Part shown: in pieces, positions 5,577-18,656 of the stretch
Position numbering within the stretch: the first letter of the stretch is position 1
Layout of the letters: each line of letters begins with the position of its first letter
Assembly (NCBI GenBank): GCA_965367675.1
Contig: CBDUJZ010000009.1
Coordinates: 2,488-66,487, forward strand
DNA length: 64,000 nt
From: an uncultured Myxococcales bacterium
Lineage (GTDB): Bacteria; Myxococcota_A; Bradymonadia; REDH01
Direction of reading: 5' to 3'
Notes under the pieces: model-generated
Seen by the model: only the letters and a program-made list of their open reading frames with translations
The model's database searches: none
What the model was told of the DNA's origin: nothing
Translations under genes and position numbers: made by a program

Positions 5577-6098
5577 CTAGAGCCCGCCGCCTGAACCGTC
5601 ACTTTCGCCCGAGCCGTCAGCGACATCGGTGTCGTCGTCGGCGTCGGCGTCCTCCGATGCGTCGGCGTCACCAGACCCGTCAGCGACATCGGTGTCACCG
5701 GAGCCATCTGCCACGTCGGCGTCACCTGACCCGTCGGCGGCGGCATCCTCGAGCGTGTCTTCCACCACGTCTTCGGCGGTGTCTTCGGGCGTGTCGCTGA
5801 GCGTGTCTTCGGGCGCGTCGACCGCGGCGTCAGCAACGGTGTCTTCCGGGGCGTCGGCGGGCGCGTCCGCTTCAGTGGTGTCGGTCTCGGCAGCGTCGTC
5901 CGGTGCGTCTGCGGCGGTGTCGACGGTCGCGTCGCCCTCGGCATCGAGCGGCGGGAACGCGCCGTCTTGGATCACGCAGATGTTGCCGGAGCCGGGCTCA
6001 GAACCGTCGGGGCAGTACTCCTGCGATTCGAACAGCGCGCAGCCGGAGGCGGCGAAAACGAAGAGCGTGGCGAACGCCATCTGCGAAAAGCGGGACAT
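5577..6098 (-). CDS. Acidic-repeat lipoprotein (D/E/T/A-rich; DVADGSGD x3)
   Basis: Signal peptide and lipobox (FAASGC), a short Cys-containing segment, then a low-complexity acidic tail with tandem DVADGSGD repeats. GC3-rich codon usage. Divergent from the cupredoxin lipoprotein. Confidence 0.6.
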   Translation of the reverse strand: MSRFSQMAFATLFVFAASGCALFESQEYCPDGSEPGSGNICVIQDGAFPPLDAEGDATVDTAADAPDDAAETDTTEADAPADAPEDTVADAAVDAPEDTLSDTPEDTAEDVVEDTLEDAAADGSGDADVADGSGDTDVADGSGDADASEDADADDDTDVADGSGESDGSGGGL

Positions 6099-6464
6099 GG
6101 GCTACTCGGTAGGAGGGACTCCGCGATCGTAGCAACACGTGGAATTCGTGTCACGCCCTAGGTCGCGCCGGGCACAATACGCCGACGTCAGCGCGGCTGG
6201 GACGGAGCGCGCATGGTACCGGCTCGGGGGAGGGGGCCCGGGCGGGCGACGGCCGAGGCACAAATCCCGTGTTGTATTTGAATCGCGGGTTACGCTAGAC
6301 GGCCTTCATTCCCCGAGTTCGACGGAGATTGTCGCTTCGTACGTGCGTGAGTTCGCTCGCGTCGTGCCCGCGTACCGTCAGACCTTTGTCGTTTGAACCG
6401 CACTTCGAGCGGTGTTTGTGGCCGATCTCGTCCGCATTCGCCACTCCTGTACCCAAGAGCCGCC

Positions 6465-7205
6465 ATGAAGACCCTCCCCCTGTTCCGCCACTCGCTTCTC
6501 ATCGCCTTGGCGAGCTCCAGCCTGACCCTCGCCGCCTGTGGTGACGACGAGTCCCCCACGCCGGACGCTGGAGAGACCGACACCAGCGCGGACACCAGCG
6601 AGGGCGACGCGGCGGAGACGGATACGGTCGAAGCGGACGTCGCTGATGATGCGACGGTGACCGACACGGTCGAGGCCGACGTCGCCGCGGACACCGTTGA
6701 AACCGATGTGGTCGAGGCTGACGTTGCCGCGGACACCACCGAGACCGACACCGTCGAGGGCGATGTGGCCGAGGACACGACGGAGACCGATACCGTCGAG
6801 GCCGACATCACGGAAGACACGGTCGAGGACACGGTCGAGGACACCACGGAAGACACCGTCGAGTCGCGTCTCGAGGTCAACGGCTGCACCTACGAGACCG
6901 CCAGCGACATGACCGGCCAATCCACGGTCGACATCTCCGGCATTCAGGCGTGGACGATTCCGCACCAGGTCTGCATCGTCGTATCGGCGGGCACCGAAGT
7001 TTCCTGGTCCGGTAGCTTTGGCGGTCACCCGCTGGTGGGTGGCGAGGTGTTCTCCGTCGACGACGCGAGCCCCATCACCATCGCCGCGAATGCCGCTGGC
7101 TCCGAGGCGGCCACCGTGTCCGTCATGCTCGCGAACGCCGGTGACTTTGCATACTTCTGCAACCGTCACTTCGAGGCCATGCAAGGCGTCATCTACGTCG
7201 ACTAG
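6465..7205 (+). CDS. Cupredoxin (type-1 blue copper, plastocyanin/pseudoazurin-like) lipoprotein with acidic TDTVEADVA repeat linker
   Basis: Start at MKTLPLFRHSLLIALASSSLTLAAC (lipobox). About 100 aa of roughly 11-aa acidic repeats, then a C-terminal domain with His (TIPHQVC) and the YFCNRHFEAMQG copper-site signature (Cys-x2-His-x3-Met). Confidence 0.8.
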   Translation: MKTLPLFRHSLLIALASSSLTLAACGDDESPTPDAGETDTSADTSEGDAAETDTVEADVADDATVTDTVEADVAADTVETDVVEADVAADTTETDTVEGDVAEDTTETDTVEADITEDTVEDTVEDTTEDTVESRLEVNGCTYETASDMTGQSTVDISGIQAWTIPHQVCIVVSAGTEVSWSGSFGGHPLVGGEVFSVDDASPITIAANAAGSEAATVSVMLANAGDFAYFCNRHFEAMQGVIYVD

Positions 7206-7243
7206 TCGGCGTCCGCCCCGTCGTTGTTGCGACGCTTGGTCCG

Positions 7244-7279
7244 CCGAACCCCCGCTACCTTGGCGTAACGGGGGCTCGG
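7244..7279. terminator. Intergenic hairpin between convergent genes (11-bp stem, 1 mismatch, 14-nt loop)
   Basis: CCGAACCCCCG...CGGGGGCTCGG inverted repeat in the 85-bp gap between the cupredoxin stop (7205) and the histidine kinase stop (7291). Confidence 0.4.
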
Positions 7280-7290
7280 CGGTGAATCGG

Positions 7291-8777
7291 CTACACGTCT
7301 GTGTCCGACGTGGGTTTCCGCTTGAGCCAGAGCCGGAAGCACGTGCCCGAGCGATCGGCGAGATTCACGTGCTCCAGCTCGCCGCCCATCGCTCGCGCGA
7401 CCTTTTTGGACACCGCGAGTCCCAAGCCGGTGCCCTTGATCTTGGTGGTGAAGAACGGCTCGAACATGCGCCTGCGGACGTCTTCCGGTAGGCCTGGGCC
7501 CGTATCGTAGACCTCGATGTACTCGGTGTTTGCGACGATCCGGAGCTCTCCCTCGCCCTGCATCGCTTGGCACGCGTTGATGGCGAGATTGACCAGCACT
7601 TGGCGCACCATCTCAGGATCGATGGCCATGTGCGGGTTTCCACGCACGCGCATGATCACGTTGGGGTAATCGATGCTCAGGCCGTCGAGGACTTCGCGGC
7701 ACAGCTCGGCGACGTCGATACCGCTCTCGCTGCGGAACTGGTTGGGGCGCGCGTACGCGAGCAGGTCGGTGACCAAGTTGTTGAGGCCGCGCACCTGCTT
7801 GAGCACGCGGTCGATGATGTTATGCAGCCGGTCTCCGCTGGTGAACTCGTTCTGGATGACCTGCAGCGCGCCGCTGATTCCAGCGAGCGGGTTGCGAAGC
7901 TCATGCGCCAGCGTGGCGGTCAGCGTGCCGATCTGCGCCAGGTGTTCGGCTTGCTGCGCGCGCCGTTCGGCTTCGACCGCTGCGGTGTGGTCTTGCACGT
8001 ACGCGATGAGGCCGGCCTCGGGCGCTTCGAGCGGTACCAGCGTGATCGAGACGTGCGCTGGCCGCCCGCCGATCGTGATGTCGACGCGCCGAATGCGCAG
8101 GCTCTCGCGGTCTTGAAGCGCCCGTTGGATGTGGTCCTCAAAGTCGGCGTCTTGGAACAGGCTCGGCGGGAGCACGTCCCGGTAGTGTGCCCCCACGGAG
8201 GAGCGGTGCCCAAACAGCCAGGCGGCCGCCGACGTGGACGAGATCACGTTGCCGTGTTCGTCGAGCAAGATGGCGGCGGCGGGCAGGTGGGCGATGAGCA
8301 GCATACGCGCATCACGGACCCGCTTTTGCGCCTCCACCGAGTGGTACGTGCTCGTCATGAGCCCGAGGTCGAGCATGGTGACCTTGCGGATCGCGTTCAC
8401 GGTGCTCGTCGGGTCCTCCGTCGCCGCGATCGCGATCTGAATCAGATCCTCCTGCATTGCCGACATCGCGAAGAACATGGCCGCGTGCGACACGCCGACG
8501 CGCACGTGGACATGGCCGATCCGCTGCCGTGCGTGGGTGTAGTCATCGTCCCACGGGCCGTTGAGCATGCTCTGGATCCAGCGCTTGAGCGTCTGCTTGA
8601 GTCGCTCCACCTGGACCGGGTCAGAGATGATCTCGCGGGTCGTCGGGTGCGCGAGCACCTTCTCGTAGAAGTGCTCGACCACCGGACCGAGTTCTGGCTC
8701 CACAAACGGCCACAGGCGCTGCAGCAGCGCTTTGTCTTCGGAGCTGAAATCTCCGTAGGAGCAGAACTCGTCGATGT

Positions 8778-8781
<4 letters not shown>
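7291..8781 (-). CDS. Globin-coupled sensor histidine kinase (sensor globin + PAS + HisKA + HATPase_c)
   Basis: N-terminal protoglobin/sensor-globin fold (LWPFVEPELGPVVEHFYEKVLAHPTTREII...ARQRIGHVHVRVGV), a PAS-like middle segment, an H-box (LAHELRNPLAGI) and N/G boxes (DTGPGLPED...GTGLGLAV). ATGA overlap with the upstream response regulator. Confidence 0.9.
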
Positions 8782-10139
<1,358 letters not shown>

Positions 10140-10284
10140 ATTGGGGGGTGTGCCGTACTAAACAGCGGGTGTGTGATTTCGCACGTGTCGGGGCCAAAGG
10201 CCAGACGGTGTGCGGGGGATGCCGCCCGGATGGGCGTTCTCACACGCTTAAAGAGCAAAGTGCGTGCCAGCCTTGGGGTAGGCG

Positions 10285-10422
10285 TCAGTTGTCATCGAGC
10301 GCCCGATAAGCGGCGTCCTCGATATCGTCGAATTGGCCGCCGCGGACGGCGCGAATGAACATGACGACGAAGAGCCCAGCCAAGCTCACCGAGAGTGGGA
10401 GCAGGATTATGAGGATGTCCAT
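10285..10422 (-). CDS. ccoS: cbb3 oxidase maturation protein CcoS/FixS
   Basis: 45 aa, MDILIILLPLSVSLAGLFVVMFIRAVRGGQFDDIEDAAYRALDDN, the classic CcoS motif. Start overlaps the ccoI stop. Only the 3' 138 nt of track ORF 10285..10872 are used. Confidence 0.8.
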   Translation of the reverse strand: MDILIILLPLSVSLAGLFVVMFIRAVRGGQFDDIEDAAYRALDDN

Positions 10423-12836
10423 AGCGGGCTTCCGTGTGTGGAGGGGCCCCGCGTGTTTGCGGGGGCCGGTGCGGTCCCAAGGGCTGGGGCGCGGGAAGAG
10501 GTCGAGCGGACACGGCGCGGGATGCTGAGCGCGTTCCCGATCACCACCAGGCTCGATAAGGGCATGAGCACCGCGGCGGCCAAGGGGGTGATCATGCCGG
10601 CGCAGGCGAGGCACACCGCGCCCACGTTGTAGGCCAACGCGAAGCGTGCGTTTTGGCGCAACACCCGTGTGACTTCGCCCCCGACGGCCCGCGCGTGCGC
10701 GACTGGGGCCAAGCCGGGGGCCACCACGACCACGTCTGCGGCTTGCAGCGCGGCCTCGGCGCCTTCGCCCATCGCGACGCCTACGTGGGCGTTTGCCAGC
10801 GCGGGTGCGTCGTTGATGCCGTCGCCCACAAACAGGACCTTCGCGCCGGTCGCGGTGGTGTCGAGCACCCACGCCGCCTTGTCTTCGGGGCGCAGCCCGC
10901 CGTGCGCGTGCACGGTCACGTTGGTGTAGCCCAATGCAGCAGCTTCGGCCGTAACCTCGGACAGCACCTGGGCGACCACGTCGGGGTGATCGCCGCTGAG
11001 CACGGTCGCGGGGACGCCGATGCGGGAGAGGGCGGTCACGGCGTCATCGCGGAGCGTATCGCGGACGGTGATGGTGCCGAGCGAGACGCCGTCGCAGGTC
11101 ACGTCGAGCACGTTGGGCGCGATGGGCGCGACGCGGATCTCGTGGCCTTCGACCGTGCCGCAGACGCCGCCGCCCTCGAGCTCCGTGACGTGGCTTGCGC
11201 GCCGCGCAGGTGTGTCACGGCGCTGCAGTTCGTGCGTGATGGCCCGCGCGATGGGGTGCACGCTGCCCAGCTCGACCGCTGCGGCCCAGGTGAGCGCCTC
11301 GTCGTTGGCGTCCACCACGCGCGGGCGGCCCTCCGTCAGCGTGCCGGTCTTGTCGAACGCTGCGTCCGTGACCTCGGCGAGCGCGATGAGGGCTTCGCCG
11401 GAGCGAACGAACGCGCCTCCGCGGGCGGCTGCGCCGATGCCGACCGCGAACGTCGTGGGGGCTGCCAGCGCGAGCGCGCAGGGACATGCGACGACCAGCA
11501 CCGCGACCACGATTCGCACGGCTGCGTCCGGTCCGGCGGTGACTCCCCACGCGATGCCCGCGACGATCGCGGTCGCCAGCACTGCGGCGGTAAAGTACGG
11601 CGCGATGCGATCGACGTGGTCTGCGCGCGGGACACGGCTCTCAAGGGCGTCGCGCACCATCGTCTCGATGCGTGCGACCGTGGATTGCGCCGCTGCGCGG
11701 ACGACTTCGGCGCGTAGTTGGCCGGACACGATGCTCGCACCCGCGGGGAGGGCTTCGTCCGGGCCGATCGTGATGGGCCGCGCTTCGCCGGTGACGTGCG
11801 ATACGTCGGCGTAGCCGGTTCCGCTTCGCACGATGGCGTCGGCGCCGAGCCGTTGTCCGGTGCCGACGACCAGCATGTCGCCGGGTTGCAGCGTGTCGAC
11901 GGCGACCTCAAACACGCGGCCGTCGCGCTCGACCATCGCCATCGTCGGGGCGGCGGCGAGCACAGCTTCTGCGGCCGCAGCGGCCCGGTTCCGTCCTTGG
12001 CTGACCAGTACGCGACCGCCGAGCAGGAACGTGATGAGCATGACCAGAGAGTCGAGGTAGGCGGGCGCGCCGGAGCGCGTCGCGAGCGCGCCGTGCACGT
12101 ACATGACGGCGATGGCGAACGCGATCGGGACGTCCATGGACACGATGCCGCGTCGCAGGGATTGAATCGAGCCGGTGAAGAAGGTGGTGGCCGAGTACAA
12201 CACCGCCGGAGTGGCGAGCAGCAGGGCGCCCCAGGCGAACAGCACGCCGTAGCGTTGTTCCATGCCCTGCGCGTCGCCGAAATAGATCGCCACGTGCATG
12301 AACATGACGTTCATGGCGCAGAACGCGGCGACGCCGAGCCGCGTGAGCTCGTCGGCCGAGGTGGTTGCAGCTGCGGACGGCTCTTGAGGCGTGTATCCGA
12401 GCGACGCGACCACGTTGGCGATGCCCTGCGCGGATTGTTGTGTGGCGTCGAATTTTACGGTCGCGACGCCGGTGCCGTAGGACACGTGGGCGTCCGAGAT
12501 CCCAGGTGTGCTGGCGAGCACACGCTCGTTGAGCCAAACGCACGCGGCGCACCGCACGCCGCCGACGCGGAGGCGCATCTCTTGGGTGCCGTCGCCGAGG
12601 TCGCGGATAAATCGAGCGGCGTAGGCCTCGCTGTCGAACGCCCGGTTGTCGTGGGACATGGGGCGGGGCGAGTAGCCCTCGCGGCGCTCGTAGAACGCAT
12701 CCCACCCTCCCTCGTGCAACAGGCCGGCGACGGTTTCGCAGCCAGCGCAACAGTAGACGGGAGCGGTCTCATCTTCCGTCGCTCGAACCGGGAGGCCACA
12801 GTGCGCACACGCGCGGTTGGGGCTCCGCGGTTCCAC
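10407..12836 (-). CDS. ccoI: Copper-translocating P1B-type ATPase CcoI/FixI
   Basis: N-terminal CxxC...CxxC metal-binding region, CPC transmembrane motif, DKTGTLT phosphorylation site and GDGINDAPAL hinge. Located in the ccoGIS context. GTG start. Confidence 0.9.
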   Translation of the reverse strand: MEPRSPNRACAHCGLPVRATEDETAPVYCCAGCETVAGLLHEGGWDAFYERREGYSPRPMSHDNRAFDSEAYAARFIRDLGDGTQEMRLRVGGVRCAACVWLNERVLASTPGISDAHVSYGTGVATVKFDATQQSAQGIANVVASLGYTPQEPSAAATTSADELTRLGVAAFCAMNVMFMHVAIYFGDAQGMEQRYGVLFAWGALLLATPAVLYSATTFFTGSIQSLRRGIVSMDVPIAFAIAVMYVHGALATRSGAPAYLDSLVMLITFLLGGRVLVSQGRNRAAAAAEAVLAAAPTMAMVERDGRVFEVAVDTLQPGDMLVVGTGQRLGADAIVRSGTGYADVSHVTGEARPITIGPDEALPAGASIVSGQLRAEVVRAAAQSTVARIETMVRDALESRVPRADHVDRIAPYFTAAVLATAIVAGIAWGVTAGPDAAVRIVVAVLVVACPCALALAAPTTFAVGIGAAARGGAFVRSGEALIALAEVTDAAFDKTGTLTEGRPRVVDANDEALTWAAAVELGSVHPIARAITHELQRRDTPARRASHVTELEGGGVCGTVEGHEIRVAPIAPNVLDVTCDGVSLGTITVRDTLRDDAVTALSRIGVPATVLSGDHPDVVAQVLSEVTAEAAALGYTNVTVHAHGGLRPEDKAAWVLDTTATGAKVLFVGDGINDAPALANAHVGVAMGEGAEAALQAADVVVVAPGLAPVAHARAVGGEVTRVLRQNARFALAYNVGAVCLACAGMITPLAAAVLMPLSSLVVIGNALSIPRRVRSTSSRAPALGTAPAPANTRGPSTHGSPLWTSS

Positions 12837-12967
12837 TAACGGTCGGCCGTTTGATAGCTCTCGACGACCTGGTCCTTATGGGTGAGGGCGACCGCGATGA
12901 AGCAGGCGTCCACCACGATGACCAGCGTGAGCAGGCCGATGACGAGGTGCAAAGGATGGATGCGCAT
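12836..12967 (-). CDS. Small 43-aa single-TM protein between ccoG and ccoI (unannotated by the ORF track)
   Basis: ATG..TAG ORF MRIHPLHLVIGLLTLVIVVDACFIAVALTHKDQVVESYQTADR with GC3-rich codons. 14 nt after the ccoG stop. Its TAG shares 1 nt with the ccoI GTG start. Confidence 0.45.
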   Translation of the reverse strand: MRIHPLHLVIGLLTLVIVVDACFIAVALTHKDQVVESYQTADR

Positions 12968-12987
12968 TCGGCTTCCTTGGGTGTCGC

Positions 12988-14331
12988 TCATTGAAGGCGA
13001 TTTCGGAACGTCACAGCGTGCTCGTACGACTTACCGTCCGTGCTCACAATGAAGTGGAATGGCGTAATCGGCTGCTCGGGACGATTGTCCGCGTCGAACT
13101 CGACGAACGCGGGGACGACCCGGCGAGACGCGGCCTCGACGAGGATTGCGCCACCGGGGACGATGATCCGCGCGCCCGGGAGATCGGTAGCCACCTCGAA
13201 GGTGCGATCGGACGAGGCGTTGTTGTGGATGGTGATCTGGTACAAGTTTCGCGCGCCTCCGTTGGGCATCGCGGACTCGGCTGAGCCGGGGTCCTGTGCG
13301 ACGGTGACGTCGAAGTTCACCCGGCCGATGAGCGTGGTCGCCAGGACGCCGGCGCACGCGAGCATGCCGACCAAGTAGATGATGGAGCGCATGCGCGACT
13401 GGGAGCCCGGGCGGCCCTCCAGCTCCGCTTGGCTGGCGTACACGACCAGCGATTCTCGGCCGATTTTACCGAGCACGTCGGTGCAGGCGTCCACGCAGCG
13501 GGCGCAGGCGATGCACTCGAGCTGGAAGCCGTCGCGGATGTCGATACCGCTAGGGCACACGGTCACGCAGCGGCGGCAGTCGATGCAGTCGCCGACATCC
13601 GGTGCCACGTCTTCGAGGCGAAGTCCGCGCGGTTTGCGCTTCTCACCGCGCCGGAAGTCGTACCCGATCTGCACCGTGTTCTCGTCGGTCATCACGCCTT
13701 GCAGGCGCGCGTACGGACAGACGTAGTGGCAGAATTGCTCTCGGAACCATGCGAAGTCGAGGAACAGGATGAACGCGAGGCTCAGCGTGAGGCCGTATGT
13801 GAACGTGTCGGCCTGGAGCGTCCACAGGTCGTAGACGTCGGCGAAGAACCCCATGAAGCTCATGGAGATGCCGAACGAGACGAGCGCGAACAGCGTCCAC
13901 TTGAGCGCCCGCTTGCGAATCTTCTCGGGCCCCCACGGCGCCTTCTGAAGCCGGCTTCGCGCGCCGCGCTCTCCGTCGGTCCACTTCTCAATTTTGCGAA
14001 TCACGCCTTCGAGCAGCACCGTCTGCGGACAGGCGTAGCCGCACCACAGACGGCCCCACAGGGACGTGACGAAGAACAGTAAGAATCCGGCACCCAGGAT
14101 GACCGGGAGCAGGACGGTGGAGTCGCGCGGCGAGAAGACCTGCCCGAAGATGAAGAACTGTCGAGTCGACAGCTCGTTCAGGAAGATCGGCGCCCCTTGG
14201 ATGCGGATCCAGGGGAGGATGAGAAGGACTGCGATAAGCAGCCGCCCCAGCAGCTGGCTGCGGCGCGTGAACTTGCCGTCTACCGATGCCGGGTGAATCT
14301 CGTGCCGCGCTGCTCCAAAAGACGACAGCAT
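12988..14331 (-). CDS. ccoG: cbb3 oxidase accessory 4Fe-4S ferredoxin-type membrane protein CcoG/FixG
   Basis: Transmembrane N-terminus, two Cys clusters (CGYACPQT; CIDCRRCVTVCP...CIACARCVDAC) and a C-terminal Ig-like FixG_C region. Start at an internal ATG that overlaps the ccoP stop (TAATG). Confidence 0.88.
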   Translation of the reverse strand: MLSSFGAARHEIHPASVDGKFTRRSQLLGRLLIAVLLILPWIRIQGAPIFLNELSTRQFFIFGQVFSPRDSTVLLPVILGAGFLLFFVTSLWGRLWCGYACPQTVLLEGVIRKIEKWTDGERGARSRLQKAPWGPEKIRKRALKWTLFALVSFGISMSFMGFFADVYDLWTLQADTFTYGLTLSLAFILFLDFAWFREQFCHYVCPYARLQGVMTDENTVQIGYDFRRGEKRKPRGLRLEDVAPDVGDCIDCRRCVTVCPSGIDIRDGFQLECIACARCVDACTDVLGKIGRESLVVYASQAELEGRPGSQSRMRSIIYLVGMLACAGVLATTLIGRVNFDVTVAQDPGSAESAMPNGGARNLYQITIHNNASSDRTFEVATDLPGARIIVPGGAILVEAASRRVVPAFVEFDADNRPEQPITPFHFIVSTDGKSYEHAVTFRNRLQ

Positions 14332-14831
14332 TAGTTTGGCGCGGTCAGCGACAAGACATACGCGGTCACATGAGCGAGGCCTTCGGGGCCGATGACGGGG
14401 AGCCACGGCGGCATGCCCTTGTCGAGCACGCCGAGGGCGATCGTCTCACGCACTTCGGGAATACCGGAGCCGTGAATCCACTCATCGTCCACCAAGCTGG
14501 GGCCGATGCCGCCGGTCGCGTCTGCCATGTGGCAGGCGACACAGCGGGTGGCGAAGATCTCGGCGCCGCTGGCGATCGCCGCGTCGCTCATCACGATCTC
14601 GATGGAGTTCAGGTCAATGGGCTGCGGCGCCGCGGCCATCTCAGCCTCGTACGAGTCGCTCAGGTTATGCGGGGTGATGATGTGCCAATCGACGATGACG
14701 CCGATGCCCCAGATGACGGTGAGGACGAACAGTCCAACCCACCACGTGGGCAACTTGTTGTCGTATTCTTCGATGCCATCGCTGTCTTCGGCGTGGCCGC
14801 GAAGTTGGTCCGGAATATACGGCTCACCCAC
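14331..14831 (-). CDS. ccoP: cbb3 oxidase subunit III CcoP (monohaem c-type cytochrome, short form)
   Basis: EEYDNKLPTWW N-terminal CcoP motif, a transmembrane helix and one CVACH haem-binding site. Confidence 0.85.
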   Translation of the reverse strand: MGEPYIPDQLRGHAEDSDGIEEYDNKLPTWWVGLFVLTVIWGIGVIVDWHIITPHNLSDSYEAEMAAAPQPIDLNSIEIVMSDAAIASGAEIFATRCVACHMADATGGIGPSLVDDEWIHGSGIPEVRETIALGVLDKGMPPWLPVIGPEGLAHVTAYVLSLTAPN

Positions 14832-15027
14832 GGGCGTCCTCGGCAGGTGCGGGGACGATCGCGTCGTCCAGTGGAAGGAGTGCGGCCTCTCGGTAGATGG
14901 CCGCGGCGCCCGGGCGGAACATCCGCAGGAACACGAGCGCGAAGAAGCAGAAGAACCCGACGGTGACGGCGCCCATCAGCAAACCGCCGGACGCCATATC
15001 ACCGGCCTGTCGAAAGATAGGATTCAT
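14824..15027 (-). CDS. ccoQ: cbb3 oxidase subunit IV CcoQ-like small membrane protein
   Basis: 67 aa with a single transmembrane helix, sitting between ccoO and ccoP and overlapping both; position and size are typical of ccoQ. Confidence 0.6.
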   Translation of the reverse strand: MNPIFRQAGDMASGGLLMGAVTVGFFCFFALVFLRMFRPGAAAIYREAALLPLDDAIVPAPAEDARG

Positions 15028-15811
15028 GGCTGGACTCCTTCGGGGTTGGCGGCGCCCTCGGGGGCACCGGAGCCTTCAACGTCCGCTGCGGCGTCAGCCT
15101 CGGCGGAGCCTTCAGCGTTGTCCTCAATGCCGAGCAGGGCGTTGATATCGGTGCCCAGTCGCTGCAGGTAAGCGATGAGCGCGATGGCCTCGAGGTTGGG
15201 GTCGGCCTCAATGTTGGCCGCGGCCAAGCTCTCGACGATGACCTGCGCTTCGGCGCTCAACGTGGCGCCCGCGTTGGCGATATCTTCTTCGGTGTAGGGC
15301 TCACCCACGCGGCTGAGGGCGCGGATGGTGCTCTGCACGTCTTCGACGTCCCAGGTGTCTTCGTACAGCCAGCTGTAGGCGGGCATGATGGACCCGGGCG
15401 AGGTCGTGCGCGGGTTGCGCATGTGCTCCCAGTGCCATGCGTCGGGGTACTTGCCGCCCACGCGCGCCAGGTCGGGACCGATGCGACGGCTGCCGAGCTG
15501 GAACGGGCGGTCGTGCACCACCTCGGCCGCTCGGGACCACTCGCCGTAGCGCATGGTCTCGGCGCGCATGGGGCGAATCATCTGCGAGTGGCAGTTGTAG
15601 CACCCTTCGCGGACGTAGATGTCACGTCCGGCGAGCTCCAGCGGGGTGTAGGGGGCCACGAGGTGGGCATCCTCCGCTTGGTTCGCGTCGACGGTGTACA
15701 TCGGGATGATTTCGACCAAGCCACCGATGAGGATCGCGACGACGGCGAGGAAGGTGAAGGGCGCCGCTTGGGTCTCGAGGACTCTAGAGTGCCAGCTGTC
15801 TTGGTTGCTGC

Positions 15812-15815
<4 letters not shown>
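15024..15815 (-). CDS. ccoO: cbb3 oxidase subunit II CcoO (monohaem cytochrome c)
   Basis: N-terminal transmembrane helix, CYNCHSQMIRP haem site and the conserved FixO region. Acidic C-terminal extension. Confidence 0.9.
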
Positions 15816-17284
<1,469 letters not shown>

Positions 17285-17445
17285 GGGTCGTGTGTGCGGG
17301 GGCGGGGGAGCGCCGCGGAGGGCAAGAAGTGCCCAAGAGTCTGCAACGCTCATGCCAGCCAGGATCCGAGCGAGCGCGGTCAAACACCGACACACCGTGA
17401 ACGCGCGCCGCTCGTGGGAGTGCGCGAGCCTCGATGCCCCCCACG

Positions 17446-17459
17446 TTGACGTTCATCAA
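17446..17459. promoter_or_regulatory. FNR/FixK-type anaerobox TTGAC-GTTC-ATCAA
   Basis: Near-consensus TTGAT-N4-ATCAA dyad in the divergent intergenic region between ccoN (minus) and the HCxxMCGP membrane protein / HiPIP operon (plus). Confidence 0.55.
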
Positions 17460-17470
17460 ACCGTGACGAC

Positions 17471-18301
17471 GTGGCAATTCGCCCAGCCATGTGTGTGATC
17501 CTGCACACTTGCTTCGCCCTCTGCGTCGGGAAACGCCCGAGTTCGCTGGGTGTGAGATTTGGCACAACGCCTGCATTAAGTCGCCGCGTGACCACTTCAG
17601 CACTCATCGCGCTCCTATTCGCTTCCCTGGCCGTCGGCTTCGTCGGTAGCCTGCATTGCGTTGGCATGTGCGGCCCGTTTGCGGCCTTGGCAGGCACGCG
17701 CGGCTGGAAGGGCGTGATCACATATTCTTCTGGACGGCTGCTGACTTACGGGCTGCTCGGTGCATTTGCCGGACTGTTCGGCGCAGCGCTCGCGGCGCTC
17801 CGTGAGGTCGGACTCGTGGTCGCTGTGGTCATCTTGCTCACCGTATCTCTACAGCTCGCAGGTGTGTTGCCTGAGCCGCGCATCGGCGCTCGTTGGTCTG
17901 CACCCCTCGTTCGCTGGGTGCAACGCGCCCGGGCGGGCCGTTTCGCACTAGGCGTCACCACCGCGCTCCTGCCGTGCGGTCTCGTATACGCCGGCCTCGG
18001 TGTGGCCATCGGCGCTGGCTCCCCGCTGTGGGGCGCGCTCGCGATGGTCACGTTCGGTCTGGGCACTTGGCCCGCGTCCCTGCTCGTCGGCGTTGGCGCC
18101 GGTCGCTTGATGCGGGTGCGTAAACCGGTCCAGCGAGTCGCCGCCGCCATCGTGTGTGTCGCCGGACTGTGGACGCTCAGCCACCGCGCGCCGTCCCATC
18201 TCGTCGAGCCGCCCTCGGAGCCTGGAGCGTCCGAGGCAGCACCGCTTGACCAGGCCCCCATTCCTTCCTGCTGCGCCGGCAACGTCTCAGCCCCGCAGTG
18301 A
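17471..18301 (+). CDS. DsbD_2 / TauE-SafE-like polytopic membrane protein with HCxxMCGP motif (start uncertain; GTG near 17590 possible)
   Basis: Six or more transmembrane helices. LHCVGMCGPF motif in TM1 and a second conserved Cys (LLPCGLVY). Confidence 0.7.
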   Translation: MAIRPAMCVILHTCFALCVGKRPSSLGVRFGTTPALSRRVTTSALIALLFASLAVGFVGSLHCVGMCGPFAALAGTRGWKGVITYSSGRLLTYGLLGAFAGLFGAALAALREVGLVVAVVILLTVSLQLAGVLPEPRIGARWSAPLVRWVQRARAGRFALGVTTALLPCGLVYAGLGVAIGAGSPLWGALAMVTFGLGTWPASLLVGVGAGRLMRVRKPVQRVAAAIVCVAGLWTLSHRAPSHLVEPPSEPGASEAAPLDQAPIPSCCAGNVSAPQ

Positions 18302-18338
18302 ATCCGCGGCTCTGCCGCACAACCCCGCAAGAGGCACC

Positions 18339-18656
18339 ATGACCGAAATCAACCGTCGACAATTTCTTGAGCGCGCTGCAATCCTCGGCGCGAGCCTCAG
18401 CGCTGGCGCGCTCCTGATCGGCTGCAACAGTGGCGGCGGAGCGTTGTCCTGCACGGACACGGCCGGCCTCGACGCCGCCCAGGTCTCCCTGCGCACCAAC
18501 AACGGCTACGTAGAGCGCAGCACGGTCGCGTCCAAGAACTGCGCCAACTGCTCGCTCTTCACCGCCGGCGGCGAAGGCTCCTGCGGCAGTTGTTCCGTCG
18601 TGCCCGGCCCGATCAACCCGGCCGGCTACTGCAACATCTGGGTCGCCGCAGCCTAG
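18339..18656 (+). CDS. High-potential iron-sulfur protein (HiPIP), Tat-exported lipoprotein
   Basis: Start at MTEINRRQFLERAAILGASLSAGALLIGC (twin-arginine motif plus lipobox). Four Cys in the HiPIP arrangement (CANCSLF...CGSCSVV...GYCNIW). Confidence 0.85.
   Translation: MTEINRRQFLERAAILGASLSAGALLIGCNSGGGALSCTDTAGLDAAQVSLRTNNGYVERSTVASKNCANCSLFTAGGEGSCGSCSVVPGPINPAGYCNIWVAAA

Follow-up and report, generated by a model that had tools for sequence, protein, structure and literature searches.

Across a 64-kb stretch of DNA from an uncultured Myxococcales bacterium (the whole of which is called the window here; G+C content about 66%), one island brings together the genes of a cbb3-type oxidase and its assembly factors, a two-component pair formed by a haem-globin sensor histidine kinase and an NtrC-type response regulator of the sigma-54 activator class, and a divergent operon for a DsbD_2-family membrane protein and a HiPIP. 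We describe these genes, the sigma-54 promoters that precede them and a candidate binding site through which the pair would act on the oxidase, and we compare the arrangement with related loci and with known regulatory systems. An earlier note on this DNA had summarized the gene content under five items; all five are present, with corrections to the start codons, to the strand of the cupredoxin-like gene and to the strength of the cupredoxin call. The genes of the island proper are as follows (ORF, open reading frame):

7291..8781 (-), sensor histidine kinase, 496 aa (Pfam domains)
8778..10136 (-), NtrC-type response regulator, likely start ATG 10136, ORF 8778..10139 (Pfam)
10285..10421 (-), ccoS (FixS; Pfam FixS E 5.2e-15, and direct sequence reading)
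10407..12836 (-), ccoI, Cu-transporting P-type ATPase (Pfam ATPase-cat_bd, HMA, E1-E2_ATPase and Hydrolase)
12836..12967 (-), 43-aa single-transmembrane ORF at the ccoH position; the ORF reaches 12991 (51 aa)
12988..14406 (-), ccoG (FixG; Pfam Fer4_18 and FixG_C)
14331..14831 (-), ccoP, mono-haem, 166 aa (Pfam FixP_N and one Cytochrome_CBB3 domain)
14824..15027 (-), ccoQ (Pfam FixQ E 7e-07)
15024..15815 (-), ccoO (Pfam FixO E 6e-85)
15812..17284 (-), ccoN; start ATG 17284 read from the sequence, in place of the ORF start 17395
17588..18301 (+), DsbD_2-family membrane protein (Pfam DsbD_2 E 1.4e-33); start set by alignment with six homologues
18339..18656 (+), Tat-lipoprotein HiPIP, 37 nt past the DsbD_2 gene (Pfam HIPIP 28.5 bits, cutoff 22)

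On the minus strand, ccoN, ccoO, ccoQ, ccoP, ccoG, the 43/51-aa ORF, ccoI and ccoS form a closely packed string, which a 148-bp gap separates from the regulator gene, followed by the kinase gene. The DsbD_2 gene and then the HiPIP gene run divergently from ccoN on the plus strand.

The kinase, the regulator and the oxidase genes

The kinase had been described as haem-globin-coupled, and its domains agree with that description: Pfam finds a Protoglobin domain (residues 3-149; E 1.9e-36, 125.9 bits against a cutoff of 25), a PAS domain (PAS_4/PAS, residues 162-267), HisKA (E 8e-15, containing H293) and HATPase_c (E 7e-21). The closest structural match of the first 150 residues is the globin-coupled sensor of G. 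sulfurreducens (GsGCS, 2W31; E 2.6e-20, 30% identity), and the domain also matches AfGcHK (5OHE; E 1.1e-19, 35% identity across 141 residues) and HemAT (E 1e-14). The distal Tyr motif aligns with FY(39) of the kinase (FYDRI in AfGcHK), and the segment RIGHVH(92)VRVG aligns with RIGRVHVRIG of AfGcHK, which holds the proximal His, so that the sensor-globin match and the proximal His, both of which the earlier note had wished to see checked, are found. Additionally, Y39, H92 and the phospho-acceptor H293 (in AHELRNPL) are invariant in an alignment of 34 kinase homologues. By these matches the N-terminal domain is a true sensor globin, with His92 and Tyr39 as its predicted proximal and distal haem ligands. 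In the remainder of the protein, the PAS-HisKA-CA part is best matched among the NCBIfam profiles by AtoS (223 bits) and ZraS (136 bits), both far below the equivalog cutoffs, and ZraS is also the best PDB match of the kinase core; the transmitter can thus be classed, from its profile matches, as AtoS/ZraS/NtrB-like.

For the regulator, Pfam likewise supports the sigma-54 activator that had been proposed, with a start moved to ATG 10136. The protein combines a receiver (Response_reg E 1e-27; D9/D10, D53 and K103 read from the translation), a Sigma54_activat domain (E 7.6e-64, profile 1-167 of 168) with the Walker motifs GESGTGKD and FLDELGEM, an AAA_lid and an HTH_8 domain (E 7.6e-14). Its best NCBIfam profiles are AtoC (432 bits) and NtrC (424 bits), and also ZraR, all far below the equivalog cutoffs. 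Since the best matches are AtoS/ZraS for the kinase and AtoC/NtrC/ZraR for the regulator, the two proteins belong to the class that normally works with sigma-54. The ATGA overlap reported earlier is also there: the stop of the regulator gene and the start of the kinase gene share 8778..8781, and by this overlap the two genes are predicted to be translationally coupled.

The cluster ccoNOQP plus ccoG-[43-aa ORF]-ccoI-ccoS was found as it had been described, with all its genes on the minus strand and the ccoN start corrected to ATG 17284. CcoN is assigned by NCBIfam TIGR00780 with 660 bits (cutoff 583). CcoP reaches only 82 bits with the NCBIfam ccoP profile (cutoff 180) and has a single haem-c domain, unlike the di-haem form, and a full-length CcoH is likewise missing: the 43-51-aa ORF gives a weak match to the N-terminal part of Pfam FixH (E 0.11, profile 9-42 of 150). 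Both features recur elsewhere. A short mono-haem CcoP (161-176 aa, FixP_N and one haem-c domain) is common to the window and most of the related loci described below, in which the genes are:

L081, 3079..3576, mono-haem ccoP
L085, 7070..7600, mono-haem ccoP
L089, 7077..7574, mono-haem ccoP
L092, 6032..6553, mono-haem ccoP

The usual di-haem CcoP (279 aa) was seen in L087 alone among the loci compared. In the same way, a reduced CcoH/FixH ORF (41-54 aa, single-transmembrane) lies between ccoG and ccoI, with sequences visibly alike in L085, L087 and L089:

L085, 5676..5801, reduced ccoH ORF
L087, 7407..7571, reduced ccoH ORF
L089, 5574..5699, reduced ccoH ORF

The short ORF of L087 also gives the weak FixH N-terminal match (E about 0.1), and L092 has a 43-aa ORF at the matching ccoG-ccoI position (placement only). 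The combination of a mono-haem CcoP with a reduced CcoH is, from these comparisons, a locus variant shared with relatives, and the mono-haem CcoP points to a cbb3 form particular to the lineage, in which electrons may enter by another route.

Related loci, sigma-54 promoters and a candidate enhancer

The kinase belongs to a large family: the best 120 clusters share its architecture (with PAS recorded in most), none of them above 59% identity to the window kinase, and those with named members come from metagenome-assembled genomes (MAGs) of the Myxococcota/'Deltaproteobacteria' type. For the ThrRS of the window, too, the closest named matches are in MAGs, labelled Myxococcales (76%), Bradymonadia (72%) and Deltaproteobacteria (69%). 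For synteny we used 11 independent loci of kinase homologues (37-52% identity), found by exact-protein look-up. The conservation of the neighbourhood, which had been put forward as a check, is clear in content: the regulator is adjacent in 9 of the 11, a cco cluster is found in 7 and DsbD_2 in 7, although gene order and orientation vary. The regulator orthologues adjoining the kinase homologues are better conserved (54-70% identity) than the kinases themselves. The loci, with the identity of each kinase to that of the window, are:

L081, kinase 51%, the order of the window: DsbD_2 divergent from ccoNOQP-G-I-S, then regulator, kinase
L082/83, kinase 52%, ccoP...ccoS, then regulator, kinase
L085/86 and L089, kinase 39%, kinase divergent from ccoN; regulator convergent; then small ORF, DsbD_2
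L087, kinase 37%, kinase straight after ccoS; hemN before regulator
L092, kinase 44%, ccoN divergent from DsbD_2-kinase; regulator convergent
A further locus, kinase 40%, with cco and DsbD_2, and no regulator within 10 kb
L084, kinase 45%, DsbD_2-kinase and regulator; no cco
L088, kinase 40%, regulator only
L094, kinase 40%, Usp-kinase, regulator, FixK-like gene
L093, kinase 42%, orphan kinase

Two more short contigs (L009 and L090) show the kinase-regulator pairing, one of them with DsbD_2 too.

The earlier note had reported no convincing -24/-12 promoter in the intergenic regions. The pattern TGGCAY-N5-YTGCW has exactly three matches in the 64 kb, all of them in the island (0.17 expected; none of 100 shuffles reaches three), and each is intergenic and correctly oriented:

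10254..10269 (-), promoter of the regulator-kinase operon, TGGCACgcactTTGCT (also written TGGCACGCACTTTGCT), between ccoS and the regulator gene
17342..17357 (-), promoter of the cco operon, TGGCATgagcgTTGCA (also written TGGCATGAGCGTTGCA), one mismatch, ending 58 nt before the ccoN ATG
17560..17575 (+), promoter of the DsbD_2-HiPIP operon, TGGCACaacgcCTGCA (also written TGGCACAACGCCTGCA), one mismatch, just before DsbD_2

The first of these, TGGCACgcactTTGCT, is the sole perfect match to TGGCAC-N5-TTGCW in the window. Equivalent sites recur in the relatives: before ccoN in L081, L085, L087 and L089; before DsbD_2 or its small-ORF partner in L081, L084, L085, L087, L089 and L092; and before the regulator gene in L081, L082/83, L085, L089 and, as a weak site, L092. 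Further sites precede the small ORF of L088 and, in L094, the Usp gene (a perfect site) and the FixK-like gene (a sigma-54-like site; L094 9236 and 13140). In the window and the loci together (248 kb), 17 sites match TGGCAC-N5-TTGCT at no fewer than 10 of the 11 positions, and 15 of them fall within the 3.8 kb (1.5%) of intergenic DNA that flanks genes of the module (binomial p ~1e-25). An unbiased enumeration of palindromes in the control regions (gene-to-gene intervals) gave the sigma-54 core GCA-N7-TGC as the most widespread, in 16 of the 18 regions. Around ccoN and in the gap that follows ccoS, scans for sigma-70 promoters and terminators found nothing above shuffles, so that the pair may be transcribed both by read-through from the oxidase operon and from its own sigma-54 promoter. 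The caution, voiced earlier, that the oxidase genes next to the pair may not be among its targets is contradicted by these promoters, because both they and the gene linkage recur in distant relatives.

In the same enumeration, dyads of the TGTG/CACA type were the most enriched palindromes of the control regions (35-57-fold). The consensus, derived by inspecting those loci in which our first model (GTGTG-N8-CACAC) was missing, is the 14-bp palindrome GTGYG-N4-CRCAC with an A/T-rich centre. Allowing at most one mismatch, 22 of its 86 matches lie in control regions (1.3 expected; about 17-fold; p ~7e-21), and 14 of the 18 control regions hold it at least once. The two occurrences placed near promoters of the island are:

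17491..17508, perfect palindrome GTGTG-N8-CACAC, GTGTGTGATCCTGCACAC (containing GTGTGATCCTGCAC), between the divergent sigma-54 promoters; candidate shared upstream activating sequence
10171..10184, exact copy of GTGYG-N4-CRCAC, GTGTGATTTCGCAC, in the regulator leader, past the sigma-54 site and ahead of the start codon; candidate activator-binding site

The palindrome at 17491..17508 stands about 60 bp from the -24 element of the DsbD_2 promoter and about 145 bp from that of ccoN. Exact GTGTG-N8-CACAC occurs twice in the 64 kb (0.03 expected), and the first model with up to two mismatches showed no window-wide enrichment (25 matches, 37 expected); the informative forms are the exact one and, across the loci, the 14-bp consensus. 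The helix-turn-helix segments of the regulator are near-identical from locus to locus, which fits a conserved DNA site, and we infer that the regulator binds the GTGYG-N4-CRCAC palindrome as its candidate site. Other copies were also seen. The second exact GTGTG-N8-CACAC (GTGTGCTGGCGAGCACAC, 12506..12523) lies some 320 nt inside ccoI and has no sigma-54 site near it; in L085 and L089 the palindrome of the regulator operon is upstream of the promoter; and L089 has an extra exact copy of GTGYG-N4-CRCAC (at 15271) just upstream of its Usp gene (15384..15824).

DsbD_2, HiPIP and accessory genes

The membrane protein encoded divergently from ccoN is indeed of the HCxxMCGP DsbD_2-like type reported before: it carries SLHCVGMCGP, with LLPCGLVY and a C-terminal PSCC as further motifs, besides the Pfam match listed above. 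Its homologues in the module share an N-terminal HCxGMCGP, a middle LLPCGL and a C-terminal P-x-C-C/H, and no curated NCBIfam family matches them. This suggests a thiol- or metal-handling membrane protein tied to the cbb3 oxidase. The start given by the homologue alignment, GTG 17588, lies 12 nt past the -12 element of the sigma-54 promoter, so that the transcript would be nearly leaderless with a GUG start; an alternative in-frame GTG at 17552 would place the sigma-54 site within the ORF. In the relatives the matching promoter is 66-96 nt upstream of DsbD_2.

The second gene of this operon encodes a Tat-lipoprotein HiPIP, as had been stated: the RRQFL Tat motif, the LIGC lipobox and four Cys are present, the cluster Cys being read in NCANC, SCSVVPG and GYCNIW (CxxC...C...C), and the Pfam score is above the cutoff. 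HiPIP is an acceptor of alternative complex III (PMC5928083). The proposal that HiPIP donates electrons to the oxidase stands in part: sharing one sigma-54 site with DsbD_2 fits the role of a periplasmic electron carrier, but the related loci have no HiPIP counterpart, and the arrangement would be specific to the window.

Beyond the kinase gene lie two lipoprotein genes:

6465..7205 (+), lipoprotein; acidic repeat linker followed by a cupredoxin-like domain at the C terminus
5577..6098 (-), acidic lipoprotein; signal peptide and lipobox read from the sequence

The cupredoxin-like gene is convergent with the kinase gene, and the acidic lipoprotein gene lies beside it. The cupredoxin call is weaker than had been stated: His, Cys and His align (GHP and FCNRH with the Cu ligands of plastocyanin 1PLC, E 0.12), but the support is sub-threshold (Pfam Copper-bind E 0.019, 15.8 bits against a cutoff of 21.2), and a single-sequence AlphaFold model (pLDDT 51), for which Foldseek returned generic beta-sandwiches only, was uninformative. 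There is no sigma-54 site upstream of this gene and no counterpart in the related loci, and the gene shows no sign of co-regulation. The acidic lipoprotein gene is present as had been described; its product matches no family in Pfam or NCBIfam, and a sigma-70-like site lies near it at 6154..6126. Both lipoproteins have long linkers rich in D, T, E and A, made of imperfect tandem repeats (5642..5819 and 6606..6844; period 42 nt at 6606..6821), which yield high-GC3 shadow ORFs on the opposite strand, e.g. 5629..6132 (+). In tblastn searches of the related loci, the HiPIP, the cupredoxin-like protein, the acidic lipoprotein and a neighbouring fatty-acid hydroxylase had no homologues, which places all four outside the conserved module. 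An Rfam scan gave no match at gathering thresholds.

The relatives, in turn, carry accessory genes of their own. A conserved small cytoplasmic protein (about 84-103 aa), which belongs to no Pfam or NCBIfam family, is encoded divergently from the regulator or ahead of DsbD_2:

L081, 8127..8393 (-), small-protein gene
L082, 273..584 (-), small-protein gene
L084, 13073..13384, small-protein gene
L087, 2459..2710 (-), small-protein gene
L088, 13141..13419, small-protein gene
L089, 13082..13336, small-protein gene
L092, 13042..13296, small-protein gene

A sigma-54-like site precedes it in L087, L088, L089 and L092, and the protein may be an unrecognised component of the system. In L087, hemN lies directly before the regulator gene (12878..14209 (-); TIGR00538, 379 bits). 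The hemN, Usp and FixK-like genes of the relatives echo the NmpR regulon of M. xanthus and the FixLJ-FixK cascade. A tblastn search of the window with the small ORF and with the Usp, Crp/FixK-like, hemN-like and hemerythrin-radical-SAM genes of the relatives gave no matches.

Proposed circuit, alternatives and known systems

We consider it probable that a direct route, from the haem-globin/PAS kinase to the sigma-54 activator, controls the cbb3 oxidase, DsbD_2 (together with the HiPIP in the window) and the pair itself. In this circuit, the cytoplasmic kinase would bind haem in its N-terminal globin through His92 and Tyr39, as the alignment predicts, and the occupancy by O2 would be relayed through the PAS domain to the AtoS/NtrB-type transmitter, with autophosphorylation on His293. 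The phosphoryl group would then pass to Asp53 of the translationally coupled regulator, which would oligomerise on the GTGYG-N4-CRCAC sites present in the sequence and use ATP to open sigma-54 polymerase complexes. Three promoters would be served: that of the ccoNOQP-ccoG-miniH-ccoI-ccoS operon; that of the divergent DsbD_2-HiPIP operon, with one palindrome common to it and the cco promoter; and that of the regulator-kinase operon, perhaps also reached by read-through from ccoS. The outcome would be an autoregulated circuit. The locus has no inverter kinase, and its response to oxygen may have either sign. We lean slightly towards a kinase that would be ON with O2 bound, so that the oxidase and its assembly factors would be induced when O2 arrives in a low-oxygen habitat, a sensible logic for a high-affinity sensor; a FixL-like kinase, ON in the deoxy form, would be almost as plausible.

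Several observations weigh against this circuit. The sigma-54-contacting loop of the regulator reads GAFTDA in place of GAFTGA, a form shared by six of the seven orthologues in which it was read (the seventh, in L087, has GSFTDA). GAFTDA is among the loop variants compatible with activation, a D. vulgaris sigma-54 activator with an assigned regulon having it (PMC4641369); for VfmH, another GAFTDA protein, an interaction with sigma-54 went undetected, and the effect of the variant was called unknown (PMC10714721). No rpoN was seen within the 64-kb window. The bounds of the control regions were drawn after the first promoters had been seen, which touches both enrichment tests. In the window (10171..10184) and in L081 (8528..8541), the regulator operon has its palindrome on the downstream side of the promoter, a position that could reflect negative autoregulation or activation from a downstream site. 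A single palindrome is found in the cco/DsbD_2 region of the window, and characterised enhancers usually hold two or more sites; it also resembles CRP-type sites (TGTGA-N6-TCACA), to which a different protein could bind. The DsbD_2 promoter ends very close to the likely start of its gene, at the 12 nt given above. Two of the 11 kinase homologues are without an adjacent regulator, and four are without an adjacent cco cluster. Finally, everything past the domain calls is deduced from sequence, and the organism is an uncultured MAG.

A different regulator of the oxidase was suggested by the near-consensus FNR box of the earlier note, which is present in the ccoN/DsbD_2 intergenic region:

17446..17459, FNR-like palindrome TTGACGTTCATCAA, one mismatch to TTGAT-N4-ATCAA; role doubtful

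On this alternative, a CRP/FNR-family regulator bound at TTGACGTTCATCAA would drive ccoN, and perhaps DsbD_2, through sigma-70, and the globin pair would control itself or distant genes. Operons for cbb3 oxidases are typically under FNR/FixK (PMC11841059). In L094, the regulator gene has a FixK/Fnr-like gene as its neighbour, itself preceded by a sigma-54-like site, which makes a cascade of the FixLJ-FixK kind conceivable. The box proved, however, neither significant nor conserved: the window holds no other match with at most one mismatch, but 0.30 such matches are expected, among 100 shuffles 28 contain one or more, and no counterpart was seen in the intergenic regions of L081, L085 and L087. 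Its centre lies about 95-108 bp from both sigma-54 sites and not at -41.5 of any recognisable sigma-70 promoter (the sigma-70 scan found none near it), no Crp/Fnr-type gene is among the window ORFs tested, and the ccoN sigma-54 site is kept in four relatives. Control of the oxidase from this box is thus improbable; it may be a co-regulator site, since the L094 module has a FixK-like gene, and it is not needed to explain the locus. Read as an IHF-like site, the ATCAA half-site (ATCAAaccgTGA) departs from WATCAA-N4-TTR at two positions. If up to two mismatches are allowed, TTGAT-N4-ATCAA occurs 16 times in the whole window (6.0 in shuffles, of which none in 100 reach 16), several of the matches lying in cco coding sequence.

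The remaining alternatives keep part of the direct circuit or dissolve it. The globin might sense NO, CO or redox state instead of O2, as haem globin sensors can bind several diatomic gases, ligand selectivity is not assignable from sequence alone, and the GsGCS of an anaerobe (2W31) has, to our knowledge, no established role in O2 sensing. What makes this unlikely is the invariance of the distal Tyr, aligned with the residue that stabilises O2 in AfGcHK and HemAT, together with the nature of the conserved partners: an O2 reductase with its assembly genes and, in relatives, hemN and Usp, which are themes of the O2-linked NmpR regulon. We give a similarly small chance to the regulator serving the sigma-54 promoters with its true enhancer elsewhere, the palindrome belonging to a CRP-family protein or a repressor. 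The palindrome does overlap the CRP core TGTG-N8-CACA, lies downstream of the promoter in two loci, is missing from 4 of the 18 control regions and has CRP-family genes near two of the related loci; but it is found in the regulator-proximal regions of most loci, stays with the regulator gene also in loci that have no cco genes close by (L094 and L084), and goes with DNA-binding helices that are almost invariant, and TGT-N10-ACA-like dyads are typical of enhancer-binding proteins (NifA-type sites). That the pair is a chance neighbour of the oxidase genes, as the 4 of 11 homologous loci without cco genes within 10 kb might hint, is already very unlikely, because the linkage survives several gene orders and the sigma-54 promoters and the palindrome are shared.

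The known system closest to the direct globin-to-sigma-54 circuit is NmpRSTU. In M. xanthus, NmpU, a homologue of AfGcHK, passes phosphate to two proteins, the REC-kinase hybrid NmpS and the REC-REC sink NmpT; with NmpU off, it is the NtrC-like NmpR that NmpS phosphorylates, and by this inversion of the signal NmpR is activated by hypoxia (PMC6211767, PMC11841059). As its enhancer, NmpR uses GCGCA-N5-TGCGC sites that stand in pairs (14-15 bp apart) ahead of sigma-54 promoters, and its targets are a P-type ATPase-cbb3 operon, hemN-hemerythrin, a Usp gene and the nmp operons (PMC11841059). AfGcHK is active with O2-bound haem and passes its phosphate to a receiver-only protein (an NmpT homologue), NmpU needs haem to autophosphorylate and is modelled as ON in high O2, and both are described as kinases with a protoglobin sensor (PMC6211767). 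The view that globin kinases signal only to receiver-only regulators, on which the novelty of the locus had been based, is consequently out of date, since NmpU feeds through NmpS into NmpR (PMC6211767, PMC11841059).

The window locus resembles NmpRSTU in its phylum (Myxococcota), in the haem protoglobin kinase as input and the NtrC-type sigma-54 output, in having the cbb3 oxidase, a P-type ATPase and its own genes as apparent targets, and in the Usp/hemN themes of its relatives. It differs in having two signalling proteins instead of four, in a direct connection without a second kinase; there is no receiver-only protein or receiver-kinase hybrid among the annotated window ORFs, and most relatives likewise show only the pair. 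The window kinase, moreover, has a PAS domain and an AtoS/ZraS-like transmitter, the pair sits at the 3' end of the cco operon with DsbD_2 as a conserved target, and the sign of the response may differ, given the missing inverter. The DNA sites differ as well: the control regions are enriched in GTGYG-N4-CRCAC, whereas the NmpR-type site GCGCA-N5-TGCGC (0-1 mismatch) is absent from 10137..10284 and 17285..17587 and is not enriched in the window (128 matches, 146 expected). AfGcHK itself (Anaeromyxobacter sp. Fw109-5; 5OHE/5OHF) has the matching proximal His and distal Tyr and the output of a cytoplasmic kinase, whereas its partner is receiver-only and the window kinase has an extra PAS domain and a sigma-54 activator as partner.

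Control of cbb3 oxidases is textbook ground for FNR and for FixLJ-FixK. In the latter (rhizobia; fixNOQP/fixGHIS), a haem O2-sensing kinase and its regulator also control the oxidase and its assembly genes, and L094 adds to the likeness with its FixK-like gene behind a sigma-54-like site beside the regulator. FixL, however, senses by a haem-PAS domain and the window kinase by a globin, and FixJ is a LuxR/FixJ-type sigma-70 activator that works through FixK, whereas the window activator is a sigma-54 AAA+ protein that apparently acts directly on ccoN. AtoS/AtoC, ZraS/ZraR and NtrB/NtrC, the systems to which the profiles bring the transmitter and the regulator closest, differ in their input (membrane/periplasmic or PII-controlled, against a cytoplasmic globin here) and in the respiratory targets of the window pair. 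Full-text searches of the literature that combined globin-coupled sensors with cbb3, sigma-54 or NtrC-like regulators brought up no relevant papers besides those on Nmp, and we therefore regard the locus as neither a member of the Nmp system nor categorically new, the concept being known from NmpRSTU (2018, 2025). The earlier interpretation is in this sense partly supported: strengthened in mechanism and weakened in novelty.

A bolder reading, which we hold as doubtful, is that the locus represents a widespread, undescribed two-component pathway of uncultured Myxococcota, in which a globin/PAS kinase and a GAFTDA activator with its own enhancer would be the primary direct controller of the cbb3 oxidase, DsbD_2 would be a new factor for cbb3 biogenesis or electron supply, and, for want of the NmpS inverter, induction by O2 would have a sign opposite to that of Nmp, which responds to hypoxia; Nmp would then have been elaborated later from this simpler ancestral form.

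Until now, a route from a globin to sigma-54 had been demonstrated in a single species, in 2025, where it is a relay of four proteins. The simpler two-protein form is apparently common in uncultured Myxococcota-like bacteria, where it appears physically wired into the oxidase operon. As such, it would offer a minimal system for studying how a sensor globin drives a PAS/NtrB-type transmitter, with one predicted enhancer and three promoters for in vitro testing, and a natural comparison for the question of why M. xanthus inserted an inverter kinase. Additionally, it nominates candidate co-regulated partners of the cbb3 oxidase, namely the DsbD_2 proteins (with their HCxxMCGP/PCC motifs) and the small conserved cytoplasmic protein of the relatives.

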